53,791 bases of DNA from Escherichia phage mEp010 (PP180001), one strand, 5' to 3'; counted from the stretch's first letter, positions 1 through 53,791 are shown. Notes: generated by a model not told the origin, from the letters alone. Translations and numbers: made by a program.

Positions 1-48
1 AGTTTTTCGTCAGTCTACCCATTCAAAAGATAAGTAGGTAACGCCATT

Positions 49-144
49 TCTATCATTTCATATCGTGTCACATCGTCACCGCTTCGCGTTGATTTCAAAA
101 GAAATATTTATTCTATCGTGTCATATCGTTTTCCATCGTGTTAC
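49..144. repeat. Cluster of short direct repeats upstream of int (two ~32-bp imperfect blocks, 49-80 and 112-144, carrying ATCGTGT[CT]A-type 9-mers)
   Basis: TCTATC..TCATATCGT..CATCGT pattern occurs twice; ATCGTGTCA at 62-70 and 115-123, ATCGTGTTA at 135-143; position fits integrase arm-type or int promoter-regulatory sites. Confidence 0.45.
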
Positions 145-161
145 TATCCATGCGTAAAATG

Positions 162-185
162 TGTGTACCAAATAGTGACCAAATT
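162..185. repeat. 24-bp direct repeat, left copy (TGTGTACCAAATAGTGACCAAATT); candidate att core / prophage boundary
   Basis: Matches 53722-53745 at 23 of 24 positions; ends 1 nt before the int ATG at 186. Confidence 0.45.
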
Positions 186-1385
186 ATGCTTACAGATACC
201 AAATTACGAAACATTCACGGCAAGCCATACGACGGCCCGGAAGAAGTGCCGGACGCTGGCGGATTGTCTGCCAGGATAAGCCCGCGCGGCGTTATATCTT
301 TCCAGTATCGCTACCGATTCAACGGCAAGCCTCGACGGATGAAGATTGGCACATACGGAGAAATAACACTCAAAGAAGCGCGGGCGGCGGTGGCGGAGCA
401 TAAAGAATTGCTAAACTCAGGACGAGATCCATCGGTAGCAAAAAGAATGCACCTTTCCCGCGTTACGACACGGGCAACGGTTGAGGATATTGTAAGGGAG
501 TACATGGAATCGCCGCAGGCAAGGAACATGGTCAATTATAAGCAGGTTGAGGCCATGTTAGGTAAGCACGTCATAAAACCATACGGTAGCTATATAGTCG
601 ATGATATGGACGCTATGATGTGGGAGGGAGTTTTTAGAAAGGTAGCTAATGGCGGCGCACCAGTTCAGGCAGGTATAGTTCTCAACAGAATGAAGGCCGT
701 AATAAAATACGCCATTCGCCGCCGCCGCGTGGATCGTGACGACATATCATTACTGTGCGTTAAAGACGTAGGCAAAAAACCAGCGCAAGGCAAGCGCGTT
801 TTGTCAATACAGGAGATCCACCATCTAATCAGCCTTGTAGACAGTTCAAAAATGGCGAGGCTGAATCAGATATTGATGAAGCTGATTATATTTACCGGGT
901 GCAGGACAAGCGAACTGACAAACGCAAGGCGCGAGCATTTCGATCTTGATAGCTGCGTGTGGACTGTTCCGGGTGCATTGAGTAAGAACAGGAATGAGTT
1001 TAAACGCGGTTTATCGGACGTTAGCGTGGCTTTATTGCGTGAGGCTATGGATCTGCATAGCTTTGATTTTGTCTTCGTTCCTGTGCTTTCCGGAAGGGAT
1101 GTGGCGGTGGACAGAAGCGTGCCGAAAACAGCAGCGAGGGATTTAATGATGAGGATGGGCGGCGAGCCGTGGTCGTGTCACGATCTACGCCGCACCGTGA
1201 GGACAAACCTTTCAGCGCTTGGCGTTGCGCCTCACGTTTCGGAAAAGGTTTTGGGGCATAAGCTGGCTGGGATGTTGGCTATATACGATCAGTATGACTA
1301 TGTGAGGGAACAAATAGAGGCGATGAATAAGCTGGCTGATTATTACATGAAGCCCATTGATTTACAAAATGAAATAACGTCCTGA
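186..1385 (+). CDS. int: Tyrosine-type site-specific integrase (P4-like family)
   Basis: Track ORF 138-1385; Met17 at 186 gives the typical MLTDTKLRN N-terminus; C-terminal catalytic signature (TGCRTSEL, HDLRRT, LGHKLAGMLAIYDQYDY). Confidence 0.9.
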   Translation: MLTDTKLRNIHGKPYDGPEEVPDAGGLSARISPRGVISFQYRYRFNGKPRRMKIGTYGEITLKEARAAVAEHKELLNSGRDPSVAKRMHLSRVTTRATVEDIVREYMESPQARNMVNYKQVEAMLGKHVIKPYGSYIVDDMDAMMWEGVFRKVANGGAPVQAGIVLNRMKAVIKYAIRRRRVDRDDISLLCVKDVGKKPAQGKRVLSIQEIHHLISLVDSSKMARLNQILMKLIIFTGCRTSELTNARREHFDLDSCVWTVPGALSKNRNEFKRGLSDVSVALLREAMDLHSFDFVFVPVLSGRDVAVDRSVPKTAARDLMMRMGGEPWSCHDLRRTVRTNLSALGVAPHVSEKVLGHKLAGMLAIYDQYDYVREQIEAMNKLADYYMKPIDLQNEITS

Positions 1386-1561
1386 TAACGGTAAAGAGAT
1401 CCGCCGCGCTTTAACGCTGGCATTCCCTTAACGGGTTCAGGGAATGGAGTACCTGAATCCTTCCATTTTTTAACCAGCTTAAAAAATGCTGACTTACTTA
1501 GCCCGCCTAACATTTTTTGCACTTGCTCACGATTAATAAGAATTGCGCCGATCTTATCCAT
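1343..1561 (-). CDS. xis: Excisionase / AlpA-type HTH DNA-binding protein
   Basis: 72 aa; LSKSAFFKLVKK...FPEPVK...YRYQDVISF resembles AlpA/Xis family; sits next to int, convergent and overlapping its 3' end. Confidence 0.6.
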   Translation of the reverse strand: MDKIGAILINREQVQKMLGGLSKSAFFKLVKKWKDSGTPFPEPVKGMPALKRGGSLYRYQDVISFCKSMGFM

Positions 1562-8374: not shown

Positions 8375-8620
8375 CTAAAACATTAACTGATAAACGCAGA
8401 AGAAACCTGGCAGCTGGCTGATTAGGCCGCTTCTTTTCAGTTGATGCAGTGCAGAGATAGTGTCGCGTAACGAAATTTCGCACATTTCCGCGATCTCTTC
8501 TGGCGTTACTTCGCTTTTGCCGTTGCATCCAGCCTTTGTTGCCAGTGCAATTAAGATGAGTTTTTGCGCCGGATCATTGTTATTCAGGCGAATATCAAAA
8601 GCCTTGCGCACGTAATACAT
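8375..8620 (-). CDS. Winged-HTH regulatory protein at the Cro position (paralogous to initiator N-domain)
   Basis: 81 aa; first gene of leftward operon, divergent from repressor; HTH segment EEIAEMCEISLRDTISALHQLKRSGLI parallels the initiator N-terminus. Confidence 0.55.
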   Translation of the reverse strand: MYYVRKAFDIRLNNNDPAQKLILIALATKAGCNGKSEVTPEEIAEMCEISLRDTISALHQLKRSGLISQLPGFFCVYQLMF

Positions 8621-8727
8621 ATTCTTTCTCCTATGATTAGAGTGAACGCGCGGGCGGGCATCCCATTAGCATTAGATAGCAGTGACTGACCGCTCAACAG
8701 ATCCCGCCGTTGCGTGATATTTGTTTT

Positions 8728-8761
8728 TCGCTTCGCAGCGACACCAGATTTTTAAAGAGCT
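8728..8761 (-). promoter_or_regulatory. nutR-like site (boxA AGCTCTTTA plus boxB-like hairpin) on the leftward transcript
   Basis: Minus strand reads GCTCTTTAAAAATCTGGT then hairpin TCGC-TGCGAA-GCGA; same 15-mer as the nutL-like site. Confidence 0.5.
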
Positions 8762-8769
8762 TAAGGAAT

Positions 8770-8923
8770 TGGCCTTTTGTGCTTTCCTTTATCTTTTTTC
8801 TTGCATCATTGCAACTATGGCCTTACCTTGTCTGCAAGTTTACATAATGGCTTTAACAGGTCAAGGCTTGAAAAACACGTTTTGTGACTTGCATCAAACT
8901 TTTTTAGGTTATAGGGTAGCGAC
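8770..8923. promoter_or_regulatory. Divergent immunity-region promoter/operator segment
   Basis: Leftward TTGACC-16-TAAACT (8837-8864, minus); repressor ATG only ~10 nt after a TTATAG -10-like hexamer (leaderless-type); repeated CTTGCATCA half-sites at 8800-8808 and 8888-8896. Confidence 0.4.
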
Positions 8924-9571
8924 ATGAAAACAAAATGGTATGACTTAGCAAAGCAGCTCATGCGGGCGCAGGGCATGAGTCAGGATTCATTGGCTGATCT
9001 CATGGGGATAACCAAAGGTGGCCTTTCGCACTGGCTGAACGGTCGCCGTGAGCCAAATCTTGAAGATATTGCGCGGATCATGCGGGCGCTTGGGCGTCGG
9101 CAGTTTACTGTCACACATGACGGGATGGTTATCGATGATTCTGTTTCTAACACGTTACCGGGAGCGCCACCGCGTGATTTAGGCAGTTACCCGGTTGTTG
9201 ACTGGAAGGATGTAGCAAACAATATGGAAGGCACATGCCGATCAACATTGCCACACATTACTACTAGCGTTATTTGTTCGGATGATAGTTATTGGCTGGT
9301 TGCTAAAGGTGAATCAATGAACGCACCGCAGGGGTTAAGCATCCCGGCGGGGACTATGATACTCGTTGACCCGCACGCGCCAGCTATTGACGGAAAACTT
9401 GTTATAGCACAACTGGAGGAAGGGCAGATACCTACGTTTAAACAGTTGATTATTGATGGAGGCCGAAAACTTTTGCGTTCACTGAATCCGTTGTATCCGC
9501 CGATCCCTATGAATCCAGAATCAAAAATCATAGGCGTGGTGGTTGATGCGAAGATCGTAAACCTGCCATAA
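8924..9571 (+). CDS. cI: CI/C2-type lysogeny repressor (HTH plus S24 LexA-like peptidase domain)
   Basis: 215 aa; C-terminal domain resembles P22 C2/lambda CI (GESMNAPQGLSIPAGTMILVDP, KLVIAQLEEGQIPTFKQL, KIIGVVVDAKIVNLP). Confidence 0.9.
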   Translation: MKTKWYDLAKQLMRAQGMSQDSLADLMGITKGGLSHWLNGRREPNLEDIARIMRALGRRQFTVTHDGMVIDDSVSNTLPGAPPRDLGSYPVVDWKDVANNMEGTCRSTLPHITTSVICSDDSYWLVAKGESMNAPQGLSIPAGTMILVDPHAPAIDGKLVIAQLEEGQIPTFKQLIIDGGRKLLRSLNPLYPPIPMNPESKIIGVVVDAKIVNLP

Positions 9572-51696: not shown

Positions 51697-53664
51697 ATGA
51701 TTTACACAACTGGAACAATTGCCATCAACGGCAACACTGTTACAGGCACGGGGACAAACTTTTCCGCGCCGCTTTCCCTCATCCGTGTAGGGTGCACGCT
51801 CATTGCCATCGGCAATCCTGTACAGATCTTTACCATTACGGAAATCAAAAACGGTACTGAACTATCAGTGACGCCAGCGGCTAACCCTGCGATCCCTGCC
51901 GGAACAAAATTTAGTATTCTGCTTTCTGATTCGATCTCAGTTGATGGGCTTGCCCAGGACGTAGCTGAAACGTTGCGCTACTATCAGAGTAAAGAAACAG
52001 AAGTAGCTGAGGCGCTTGAATGGAGTCAGGACCATATCGCAGACAAGATTGGGCTTGGTGCTGAACACCGAAACTGGCCTGATTGCAACGATCCTACTGG
52101 TTATATAGGTTTTTGTCGTGCTGTAGAAGCTGAATCACGTAACTTTCCGTCGATTGCATCTGGCGAAGTTTACTTGGTGGGTTGGCTTGCGCGTGGTGAC
52201 AATGCCGTTATTAACGGCTGTTTCGTTGGTACTATAAGCCTTTCACTGTACACATACAGATATAACCCAACAGATGGTACGAAAGTATGGACACGACACG
52301 CAAGAAAAGATGAGGTAAGCAGATTGACCCAGAGTGTATCTGAAACTGCTTTGCGGGCCGCAGGAGGGAAGCAAAAATTTGTTCTGTGGGATGGGGGTGA
52401 TGGGAATACTCTATCTTGGGGTGTTTGGGATGATGATGTTAGTCAATGGAGTCCGTTAGCAATAGCGCAGGGCGGTACTGGTGCGCTTGATGCTTTAACT
52501 GCTAGGAACAATCTAGGGGTGGGCGTGGGTGACAGTCCTCAATTCAGGGATGTGACTCTATCACGCTCAACAGATAACTCATCTGGCTGGGTATCTGGTG
52601 GTATACAAAGATCCGTACTTTTGGGATCTGACGGTACTACACGTGCAGAAGGTTTATTTTATGCAGAATACCAACAAGGTGAACCAACACAAATAACGCT
52701 TGCTGTACATGGAGTTAACGAAGGTTATGGCTATTTATGCTTCAATACAAGGGGGCAGATTTTAGCAGAGACAGCCATTTTAAGATCAACATACAATAAT
52801 CCACTTCTTATTAAAAGCAGCACACCAACAATCTGCTTCAATGAAGTGGAACGCCCTGACGGATCACCTTTTTACAACTTAATTTTTGATAGTGGTAACT
52901 GGCGCATTCAGAAAAACGGTGATGGGTATAATGGTGAATATGTAATAAGCTACAACTATACTTTTGATGAAATGGAGCTTCCCAACCTGCTTACAAAGGA
53001 TATTAAATTAAAATCAAATAATAGCGAAAAATCATTGGGGATTAAAGTAGAAGATAGCACAAATGTTAGCTCGTCAATAAGAGTATTTGGTTACGAAGCA
53101 GAAGGAAGGGAATCAGTTTTTGAGTTCGGTTATCTTAATAAAGAAACATCTGAATACGATAAATACGGCTTTTACTGCCAGCTTAACACTGACAATTCAA
53201 TTCATTTTCAGGTTAACGGCGCTGTAAATTGTACAACCTTAAATCAATCATGTGACCGCGACCTGAAAGACAACATCCAGGTTATAGATGATGCAACTGA
53301 AGCCATCCGCAAAATGAACGGGTACACCTACACGCTTAAGGAAAACGGCCTGCCTTACGCTGGTGTTATCGCTCAAGAGGTCATGGAGGCGCTGCCGGAG
53401 GCTGTAGGATCGTTTACTCATTACGGTAAAGCATTGCAAGGCCCGACCATTGACGGCAACGAGCTACGCGAAGAAACGCGTTACCTCAATGTTGACTATG
53501 CTGCAGTGACTGGCTTACTTGTCCAGGTGGCACGCGAAACAGATAATCGCGTCACCGAACTGGAAGAGGAAAACGCCAGCCTACGCGCCAACATTGCCGC
53601 AATGGATGAGCGGATCGCAAAACTTGAAGCGCTTGTCCTACAGTTAACCGGAAGCGAAAAATAA
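51697..53664 (+). CDS. Side tail fibre with C-terminal intramolecular chaperone (peptidase S74-type) domain
   Basis: 655 aa; C-terminal CDRDLKDNIQ...GVIAQEVMEALPEAV then coiled coil, typical self-cleaving chaperone module. Confidence 0.75.
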   Translation: MIYTTGTIAINGNTVTGTGTNFSAPLSLIRVGCTLIAIGNPVQIFTITEIKNGTELSVTPAANPAIPAGTKFSILLSDSISVDGLAQDVAETLRYYQSKETEVAEALEWSQDHIADKIGLGAEHRNWPDCNDPTGYIGFCRAVEAESRNFPSIASGEVYLVGWLARGDNAVINGCFVGTISLSLYTYRYNPTDGTKVWTRHARKDEVSRLTQSVSETALRAAGGKQKFVLWDGGDGNTLSWGVWDDDVSQWSPLAIAQGGTGALDALTARNNLGVGVGDSPQFRDVTLSRSTDNSSGWVSGGIQRSVLLGSDGTTRAEGLFYAEYQQGEPTQITLAVHGVNEGYGYLCFNTRGQILAETAILRSTYNNPLLIKSSTPTICFNEVERPDGSPFYNLIFDSGNWRIQKNGDGYNGEYVISYNYTFDEMELPNLLTKDIKLKSNNSEKSLGIKVEDSTNVSSSIRVFGYEAEGRESVFEFGYLNKETSEYDKYGFYCQLNTDNSIHFQVNGAVNCTTLNQSCDRDLKDNIQVIDDATEAIRKMNGYTYTLKENGLPYAGVIAQEVMEALPEAVGSFTHYGKALQGPTIDGNELREETRYLNVDYAAVTGLLVQVARETDNRVTELEEENASLRANIAAMDERIAKLEALVLQLTGSEK

Positions 53665-53694
53665 GAGGTGATGTGCGAAGAACATCGCCGCGCG

Positions 53695-53721
53695 AAACGA
53701 GGCTAACGCCTCGTTTCTTTT
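53695..53721 (+). terminator. Rho-independent terminator after tail fibre gene
   Basis: ACGAGGC-TAAC-GCCTCGT hairpin plus TTTCTTTTT. Confidence 0.7.
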
Positions 53722-53745
53722 TGTGTACCAAATTGTGACCAAATT
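53722..53745. repeat. 24-bp direct repeat, right copy (TGTGTACCAAATTGTGACCAAATT); candidate att core / prophage boundary
   Basis: 23 of 24 identity with 162-185; directly follows the tail-fibre terminator. Confidence 0.45.
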
Positions 53746-53791
53746 GATAAATCAAAAACAAAAACAAAGCATAAGATGTTGAATACAAATT

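Follow-up and report, generated by a model that had tools for sequence, protein, structure and literature searches.

The 53,791-nucleotide sequence of Escherichia phage mEp010 (PP180001), the whole of which is referred to here as the window, carries direct repeats of 24 bp at its two ends, one beside the integrase gene int and the other beyond the tail-fibre gene. This raises the question of whether the sequence represents an integrated prophage, flanked by short stretches of host DNA, or a free phage genome, and what role the repeats play. The original prediction favoured a prophage with the 24-mers as its attL and attR cores, and gave as an alternative a linearised circle in which the two copies surround attP. 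The mEpimmI group (mEp021, mEp010, mEp013, mEp044 and others) has the gene order and record start point of the window, with the integrase of the window also found in mEp044, and the group is described as Nus-dependent, non-lambdoid temperate coliphages (PMC11893012). The features discussed below are collected in Table 1.

Table 1. Features of the attP region and adjoining genes, in window coordinates
Feature	Position	Strand	Description
Intrinsic terminator of tail-fibre gene	53694-53717	+	10-bp stem with 6 G-C pairs, then TTTTTGTGTA
P-arm 24-mer	53722-53745	+	TGTGTACCAAATTGTGACCAAATT; its two ACCAAAT units are a candidate pair of distal arm-type Int sites
P-arm spacer	53746-53791, running on into 1-19	+	A-tract rich
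attP core region	20-40	+	CATTC at 20-24; attB-identical block AAAAGATAAGT at 25-35; polymorphic right half at 36-40
Type II-specific P'-arm repeats	48-143	+	Two clusters of three 10-bp-phased yATCrT units
Short conserved island	137-150	+	GTGTTACTATCCAT; TGTTAMTATCC (138-148) in all types; 12 nt upstream of P' 24-mer
P'-arm 24-mer	162-185	+	TGTGTACCAAATAGTGACCAAATT; directly before the start codon of int; holds two candidate distal arm-type Int sites
int, tyrosine integrase	186-1385	+	399 aa, type II of the mEpimmI group; arm-binding, central and catalytic domains
72-aa HTH protein	1343-1561	-	Convergent with int; last of the leftward early genes; candidate excisionase/RDF

The two 24-mers are 23/24 identical and lie in direct orientation on the + strand. 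The pattern TGTGTACCAAATWGTGACCAAATT has only these two matches in the whole window at up to three mismatches and none in 100 dinucleotide-preserving shuffles, which confirms the pair at the predicted positions. Each copy is composed of two ACCAAAT units in tandem, 11 bp or one helical turn apart. The final base of the P' copy lies directly 5' of the ATG at 186, and this ATG is taken as the true int start because the Arm-DNA-bind_3 profile aligns from its position 1 at residue 2 of the protein, backing the predicted contact between repeat and start codon; a longer ORF opening at GTG-138 is also present and is not needed. The P copy begins 4 nt past a hairpin with a T-run downstream of the tail-fibre ORF (51697-53664, 655 aa), just past the terminator as expected. 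Joined as a circle, the window places 46 + 161 = 207 bp between the 24-mers (231 bp from start to start), in agreement with the predicted gap, and ARAGORN finds no tRNA or tmRNA in the whole window, the ends included, where none had been noticed. A third copy of ACCAAATTA occurs at 198-206, 20 nt past the copy at 178-186, and is rejected as a site; it spells int codons 5-7 (Thr-Lys-Leu), its DNA is not kept in type I phages beyond coding need, and its presence is probably a coincidence of the coding sequence.

The 24-mer recurs nowhere else in the window, even as a near-copy, and this includes the repressor/early-promoter region at 8620-8924. Operators for the immunity repressor (Rep021 type) would be expected there first, so although one immunity group and the 24-mers are both common to all mEpimmI phages, it is highly improbable that the 24-mers are such operators, silencing int or tail-operon read-through in lysogens.

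The ends of the window are joined in related phages. Window 1-1500 has 96% DNA identity with the first 1500 bases of the mEp013 and mEp044 records, and the last ~590 bases match the final bases of these records. In phage MagusPhagus, which has a differently permuted record, the segments equivalent to window 53170-53790 and 12-1498 are adjacent on one strand and 13 bases apart, and the window end and start are also contiguous in circular IMG/VR contigs, with 53746-53791 plus 1-161 forming contiguous phage DNA in both. An exact-motif scan of IMG/VR finds 38 stretches; contigs running through the region have the 24-mers 231 bp apart, as in the window, or 241 bp apart, as in another integrase type, and prophage-derived contigs have a single copy near each end. 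Because the 24-mers lie in contiguous phage DNA in non-integrated relatives, the window is a closed phage genome without host DNA, and the int-proximal repeats, which the original prediction had conditionally treated as phage DNA, are phage DNA. The gene order of the window is that of a prophage. The window comprises in full the genome of a temperate mEpimmI coliphage with a type II integrase, opened 24 bp left of the attP core, and its ends joined (53722-53791 plus 1-185) form one attP of ~255 bp. The alternative put forward with the original prediction, a linearised circle with the 24-mers around attP, is correct.

The boundary between phage and host is located by a search with the window end joined to the window start against 5,426 complete E. 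coli genomes. In thirteen chromosomal prophages the match begins no earlier than query position 526 (window 25) and continues through int, mostly with an abgT fragment under or beside it, and prophages with int regions 90-97% identical sit between ogt/abgT' and 'abgT-abgB. The K-12 empty site in abgT reads ccaccAAAAAGATAAGTGGATAggg (more fully ...ccataccaccAAAAAGATAAGTGGATAgggcaagac..., ~90 nt before the abgT stop codon) and the window core reads ...ctacccattcAAAAGATAAGTAGGTAacgcc, giving a common block AAAAGATAAGT of 11 bp at window 25-35 followed by the partly matching GGATA/AGGTA, in which 2 of the 5 bases differ between the window attP and the K-12 attB. In the lysogen GN04592 the int-side junction reads host ...ccataccaccAAAAAGATAAGcGGATAacgcc (longer reading host ...cagcagccataccaccAAAAAGATAAGcGGATAacgccatttctatc...) and the tail-fibre-side junction phage ...ccattcAAAAGATAAGtGGATAgggcaa, host (longer reading phage ...aatccaaccattcAAAAGATAAGtGGATAgggcaaaactaacg..., host). 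Eight further IMG/VR prophage junctions break at the same place, window ~25-40. The phage/host boundary is thus at window ~25-40, and relatives integrate at the 3' end of abgT, the junction mapping reproducing the locus assigned to type II integrases of the group (PMC11893012). Integration in abgT is seen for close relatives with Int 93-98% identical, and the phage of the window would be expected to use the same site; in a K-12 lysogen of this phage the junctions are expected at AAAAGATAAG, at abgT codon ~478.

These junctions also decide what the 24-mers are not. They sit 70 bp left (P arm) and 126 bp right (P' arm) of the core, have no match at up to five mismatches in 6 kb around the K-12 abgT site, and in GN04592 stay inside the prophage at both ends (position 3138 of L002 and ~8597-8620 of L003), with the P-arm copy ~70 bp from the junction. 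A duplicated core forming attL and attR, with the window as a prophage between short host flanks, would suit direct repeats at both window ends with int at one and tail genes at the other, but the window ends are contiguous in non-integrated relatives, the junctions fall at window 25-40 and not at the 24-mers, the K-12 empty site has no 24-mer, and window 1-24 is unlike the host flank at the equivalent place in lysogens. The empty-site comparison, which had been named in advance as the means of refuting the prophage reading, refutes it by placing the boundaries away from the repeats, and the chance that this reading is correct is negligible. The sequence is to be read as a free phage genome opened at attP and not as a prophage with host flanks.

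In GN04592 the variable base of the core that follows GATAAG is the phage C at the int-side junction and the host T at the tail-side one, and because it segregates between the two junctions the exchange is placed left of position 35. One metagenomic type II prophage (IMGVR_UViG_3300045988_111075; L016 ~2390 and L032 ~75, minus orientation) lies inside an alpA-like HTH regulator gene; >500 E. coli genomes contain the reconstructed empty site for it, uninterrupted and 100% identical. The secondary and primary attB share only GATAAGTGG, which narrows the likely overlap to ~29-37, and the crossover probably occurs within about these positions.

Integration also alters the host gene. AbgT is cut from 508 to 481 residues (window 20-35, minus strand; K-12 abgT codon ~478, L004 3248-4774), and the phage CATTCA supplies a TGA stop two codons past the abgT junction, so that the last predicted membrane segment of AbgT is lost without phage-encoded replacement residues.

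The attP regions of the group are compared in an alignment of 18 distinct sequences, 10 of type II and 8 of type I (Ia and Ib, which insert in ydaM), drawn from IMG/VR contigs and from phage records, the ends of some records having been joined, and the pattern having first been seen with 6 sequences. Both 24-mers are present in all 18, at a spacing of 231 or 241 bp. The intervening ~200 bp cannot be aligned between types II and I apart from a few islands, the only conserved ones being the terminator with the P 24-mer, the P' 24-mer, CATTC left of the core and TGTTAMTATCC at 138-148; neither the core nor the 48-143 repeats are shared between types. The terminator is kept along with the P 24-mer in 18/18 sequences, and the P 24-mer hardly varies among Int types II, Ia and Ib, while the DNA from it to the core diverges. 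On the other arm, TGTGTACCAAAnnGTGACC of the P' 24-mer is invariant in 18/18 with unalignable DNA on its left. The spacing is equally constrained, with the P 24-mer 87 bp from CATTC in type II and 86 bp in type I, and CATTC 144 bp from the P' 24-mer in all type II and 155 bp in all type I sequences, a step of 11 bp or one helical turn. Between the P' 24-mer and the int ATG, by contrast, the spacing is not constant and ranges from 22 to 36. The P' 24-mer is placed relative to the core and not to the start codon, since the former distance is fixed within a type and the latter is not.

This pattern bears on the idea that the 24-mers are mosaic joints, short homologies for swapping int/att modules with no protein-binding role. 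They do bracket a segment wholly different between phage types, and they can apparently recombine, as two contigs have exactly the inter-repeat interval deleted. However, int belongs to the variable module yet lies outside the interval, leaving the P' copy internal and not needed as a joint; 19 invariant bases amid unalignable DNA in three types point to the sequence itself being under selection, and the 11-bp spacing step between types fits a structural role, making mosaic joints an improbable account. The two contigs, L029 (~3149, minus orientation) and L041 (~537), come from one metagenome and have a type II int 96.8% identical; they run from the tail-fibre terminator through a single 24-mer directly to the int ATG, with 207 bp including the attP core missing. 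This loss is due either to the direct repeats having recombined, which would give a phage unable to integrate, or to assembly collapse.

Beyond the group, species-representative genomes yield no usable close relatives of the integrase. A scan of these genomes for the 24-mer core gives 101 matches, about the chance level for 16 specified bases, none of which adjoins an Arm-domain ORF; three Pectobacterium matches are one homologous locus without such an ORF, and the motif is not found with related integrases outside the mEpimmI group in this set. In an unrelated phage contig (L024 7186-7205, IMGVR_UViG_3300002898_000029) TTGTACCATTTTTTGTACCAAATAGAGACCAAAC follows a tRNA-like 3' end and a terminator at the contig end; no integrase can be seen in what remains of the contig, ARAGORN calls no tRNA, and the occurrence is treated as chance.

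The conservation of the 24-mers is matched in the integrase. Int has Pfam matches to Arm-DNA-bind_3 (1.3e-20), Phage_int_M (8.7e-7) and Phage_integrase (2.7e-16), all above curated cut-offs, and is 98.2% identical to the type II Int of mEp044, 51% identical to the type I Int of mEp021 and ~23% identical to the HK633 'prointegrase IntS'. Compared with either type I protein, the type II Int is 72-73% identical over residues 1-60 (arm), 34-38% over residues 61-190 (core-binding) and 53-54% in the catalytic domain, although this arm-domain identity is no proof of shared specificity, much of it being family-wide. N-terminal conservation of the integrase within the group has also been noted previously (PMC11893012).

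Taken together, the 24-mers are probably paired arm-type Int sites that mark the outer limits of the ~255-bp attP. This assignment is favoured by several observations: the 24-mers are near-invariant between types while the core region diverges, Int is best conserved in its arm domain, in a pattern matching that of the 24-mers, and the two copies flank the core in the same orientation at a spacing fixed within each type. Conservation and position point to Int as the protein that would bind them. The N-terminal arm-binding domain would hold the 24-mers and the remaining domains of each Int molecule the core, and this bridging together with DNA bending would build a recombination complex as in phage lambda. 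A three-domain Int, a core identical in attP and attB, and non-core repeats on both arms are all present, an architecture classical for heterobivalent tyrosine integrases.

Bending of the P arm is suggested by its spacer, where phased A-tracts at 53746-53770 (AAATCAAAAACAAAAACAAAG) suggest intrinsic bending or a site for a bending protein. A single IHF-consensus-like site, a weak match with one mismatch, lies at 53772-53784 on the minus strand and is the only such match. Type I phages have a comparable A-tract-rich stretch of different sequence at the equivalent place.

The P' arm contains the second set of repeats, for which the predicted int-proximal direct repeats at 49-144 are recovered at 48-143. 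The yATCrT units start at 51, 61 and 71 and at 114, 124 and 134, in clusters 63 bp apart, and are contained in two 29-nt copies (48-76 and 111-139) that are 83% identical; YATCGTKTYM occurs 8 times in the window compared with 2.2 expected, 4 of the 8 falling within 61-143. The repeats are confined to the int side of the core and are absent from type I phages, which have their own motif (GTGTTnnnnnCCGTTCA, three copies) at the equivalent place.

Their phasing is like that of arm sites, and they could themselves be the true arm sites. On such an account the 24-mers would bind a host nucleoid protein or a conserved phage regulator common to the mEpimmI group, shaping attP or controlling int translation. 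It draws support from the 10-bp phasing in two triplets, like lambda P'1-P'3, from the way the repeats change together with integrase type, and from the lack of a Shine-Dalgarno sequence in type II int, where the P' 24-mer fills that position over the 24 nt before the ATG. However, the repeats lie on one side of the core only, and bivalent integrases normally need both arms, on both of which the 24-mers are present; the P' 24-mer keeps its spacing to the core and not to the ATG, the 24-mer bears by eye no resemblance to the consensus of CRP or of IHF and does not occur in the immunity region, and the arm-binding domain is the most conserved part of Int. This assignment is unlikely, though it has the most credit of the alternatives to Int arm sites at the 24-mers. 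With the 24-mers as the arm sites, the 48-143 repeats are most likely candidate sites for a type-specific accessory protein (excisionase/RDF) or for extra type-specific Int contacts. Recombination directionality factors are described in one account as typically binding direct repeats one helical turn apart (PMC7498355).

The obvious candidate for such a factor, not an established one, is the 72-aa HTH protein, whose gene overlaps the 3' end of int by 43 nt (1343-1385). The protein has no Pfam match and nothing in NCBIfam, and gives a weak match to a PHROG 'DNA binding protein' (E=4e-4); its homologues are named only 'helix-turn-helix domain-containing protein', and the homologue in mEp021, 44% identical, matches HTH_23. 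The AF2 model (pLDDT 82) has a beta-alpha-alpha...beta-alpha topology, and a Foldseek search of this model against the PDB gives no significant match (E>=0.23), the best being MerR-like winged-helix domains and a putative excisionase. As the HTH gene and int overlap convergently, leftward early transcription would run antisense into int.

The int gene adjoins the core (25-40) with only arm repeats between them and is read away from it, and therefore the whole P' arm is the upstream region of int as well. No sigma-70 consensus promoter is found in window 1-400 or in the MagusPhagus equivalent, and a -10-like TAAAAT at 155-160, picked by eye as a possible int promoter, is discarded as it has no usable -35. 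The type II int has no recognisable Shine-Dalgarno sequence, ACCAAATT standing directly before the ATG (window 181-185); type I phages (mEp021, L006 160-185) have a 10-14-nt insertion with GAGG/GGGG at that place, and type II phages differ among themselves in the length of the A-run that follows the P' 24-mer. Integrase autoregulation with an att arm over the int upstream region has been shown for KplE1 IntS and reported for P4 Int (PMC2951348). Int bound at 162-185 would damp its own expression in the same way, and autoregulation through this 24-mer is a plausible proposal here. The explanation as a whole, an opened mEpimmI genome with a ~255-bp attP, the 24-mers as arm sites, accessory repeats and Int autoregulation, is judged somewhat better than an even bet.

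In lambda, attP (POP') contains the arm-type sites P1, P2 and P'1-P'3, and the lambda and HK022 integrases have common arm sites and a conserved arm domain with different cores. The present attP of ~250 bp is like that of lambda in having a short core identical to attB and tandem non-core motifs at one-helical-turn spacing near the outer limits of both arms, with an integrase that has a separate N-terminal arm-binding domain, and, as with lambda and HK022, relatives have a conserved arm domain and arm motifs with different cores. Differences from lambda are that Int is of the Arm-DNA-bind_3 (P4-like) lineage, that int reads away from the core whereas that of lambda reads towards it, that two candidate arm units per arm are predicted from sequence in place of the 2 + 3 of lambda, and that attB is inside a protein-coding gene, which is truncated by the insertion. 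In KplE1 IntS/TorI and P4 Int/Vis, int likewise adjoins the core and points away, the arm doubles as the int upstream region, and the RDF gene, here a candidate, is transcribed separately from int. The int-proximal arm of KplE1 holds RDF and arm sites as well as the int promoter, which overlaps attL (PMC2951348), whereas the sigma-70 consensus scan identifies no such promoter here, and KplE1 and P4 insert in tRNA genes rather than in abgT. A literature search found nothing directly comparable among mapped arm sites of P4-like integrases.

The published description of the mEpimmI group reports short 'insertion motifs' and host loci only, and its text makes no mention of attP, arm-type sites, direct repeats or excisionase (PMC11893012). 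The integration locus and integrase typing are thus already published, and the 24-mer pair, the type-specific P' repeats and the spacing rules are small additions undescribed there. They provide a base-level attP map for a common group of gut coliphages so far described by short 'insertion motifs', and they are of use chiefly for annotation and as well-defined sites for testing. If the 24-mers are shared arm sites, closely related integrases would have identical arms and different chromosomal targets, a set helpful for studies of target change by tyrosine integrases or for its engineering. It is possible, at somewhat under even chances, that one invariant arm-site pair and a conserved arm-binding domain serve at least three core specificities (abgT and two ydaM motifs) with the arm-to-core distance shifted by exactly one helical turn, that retargeting of the integrase involves exchange of nothing but the core, the core-binding domain and the accessory sites, and that the direct repeats occasionally delete the core to give non-integrating phages; mppA and one further site are other integration targets in the literature on the group. 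If true, this would make the mEpimmI phages a natural example of such retargeting.
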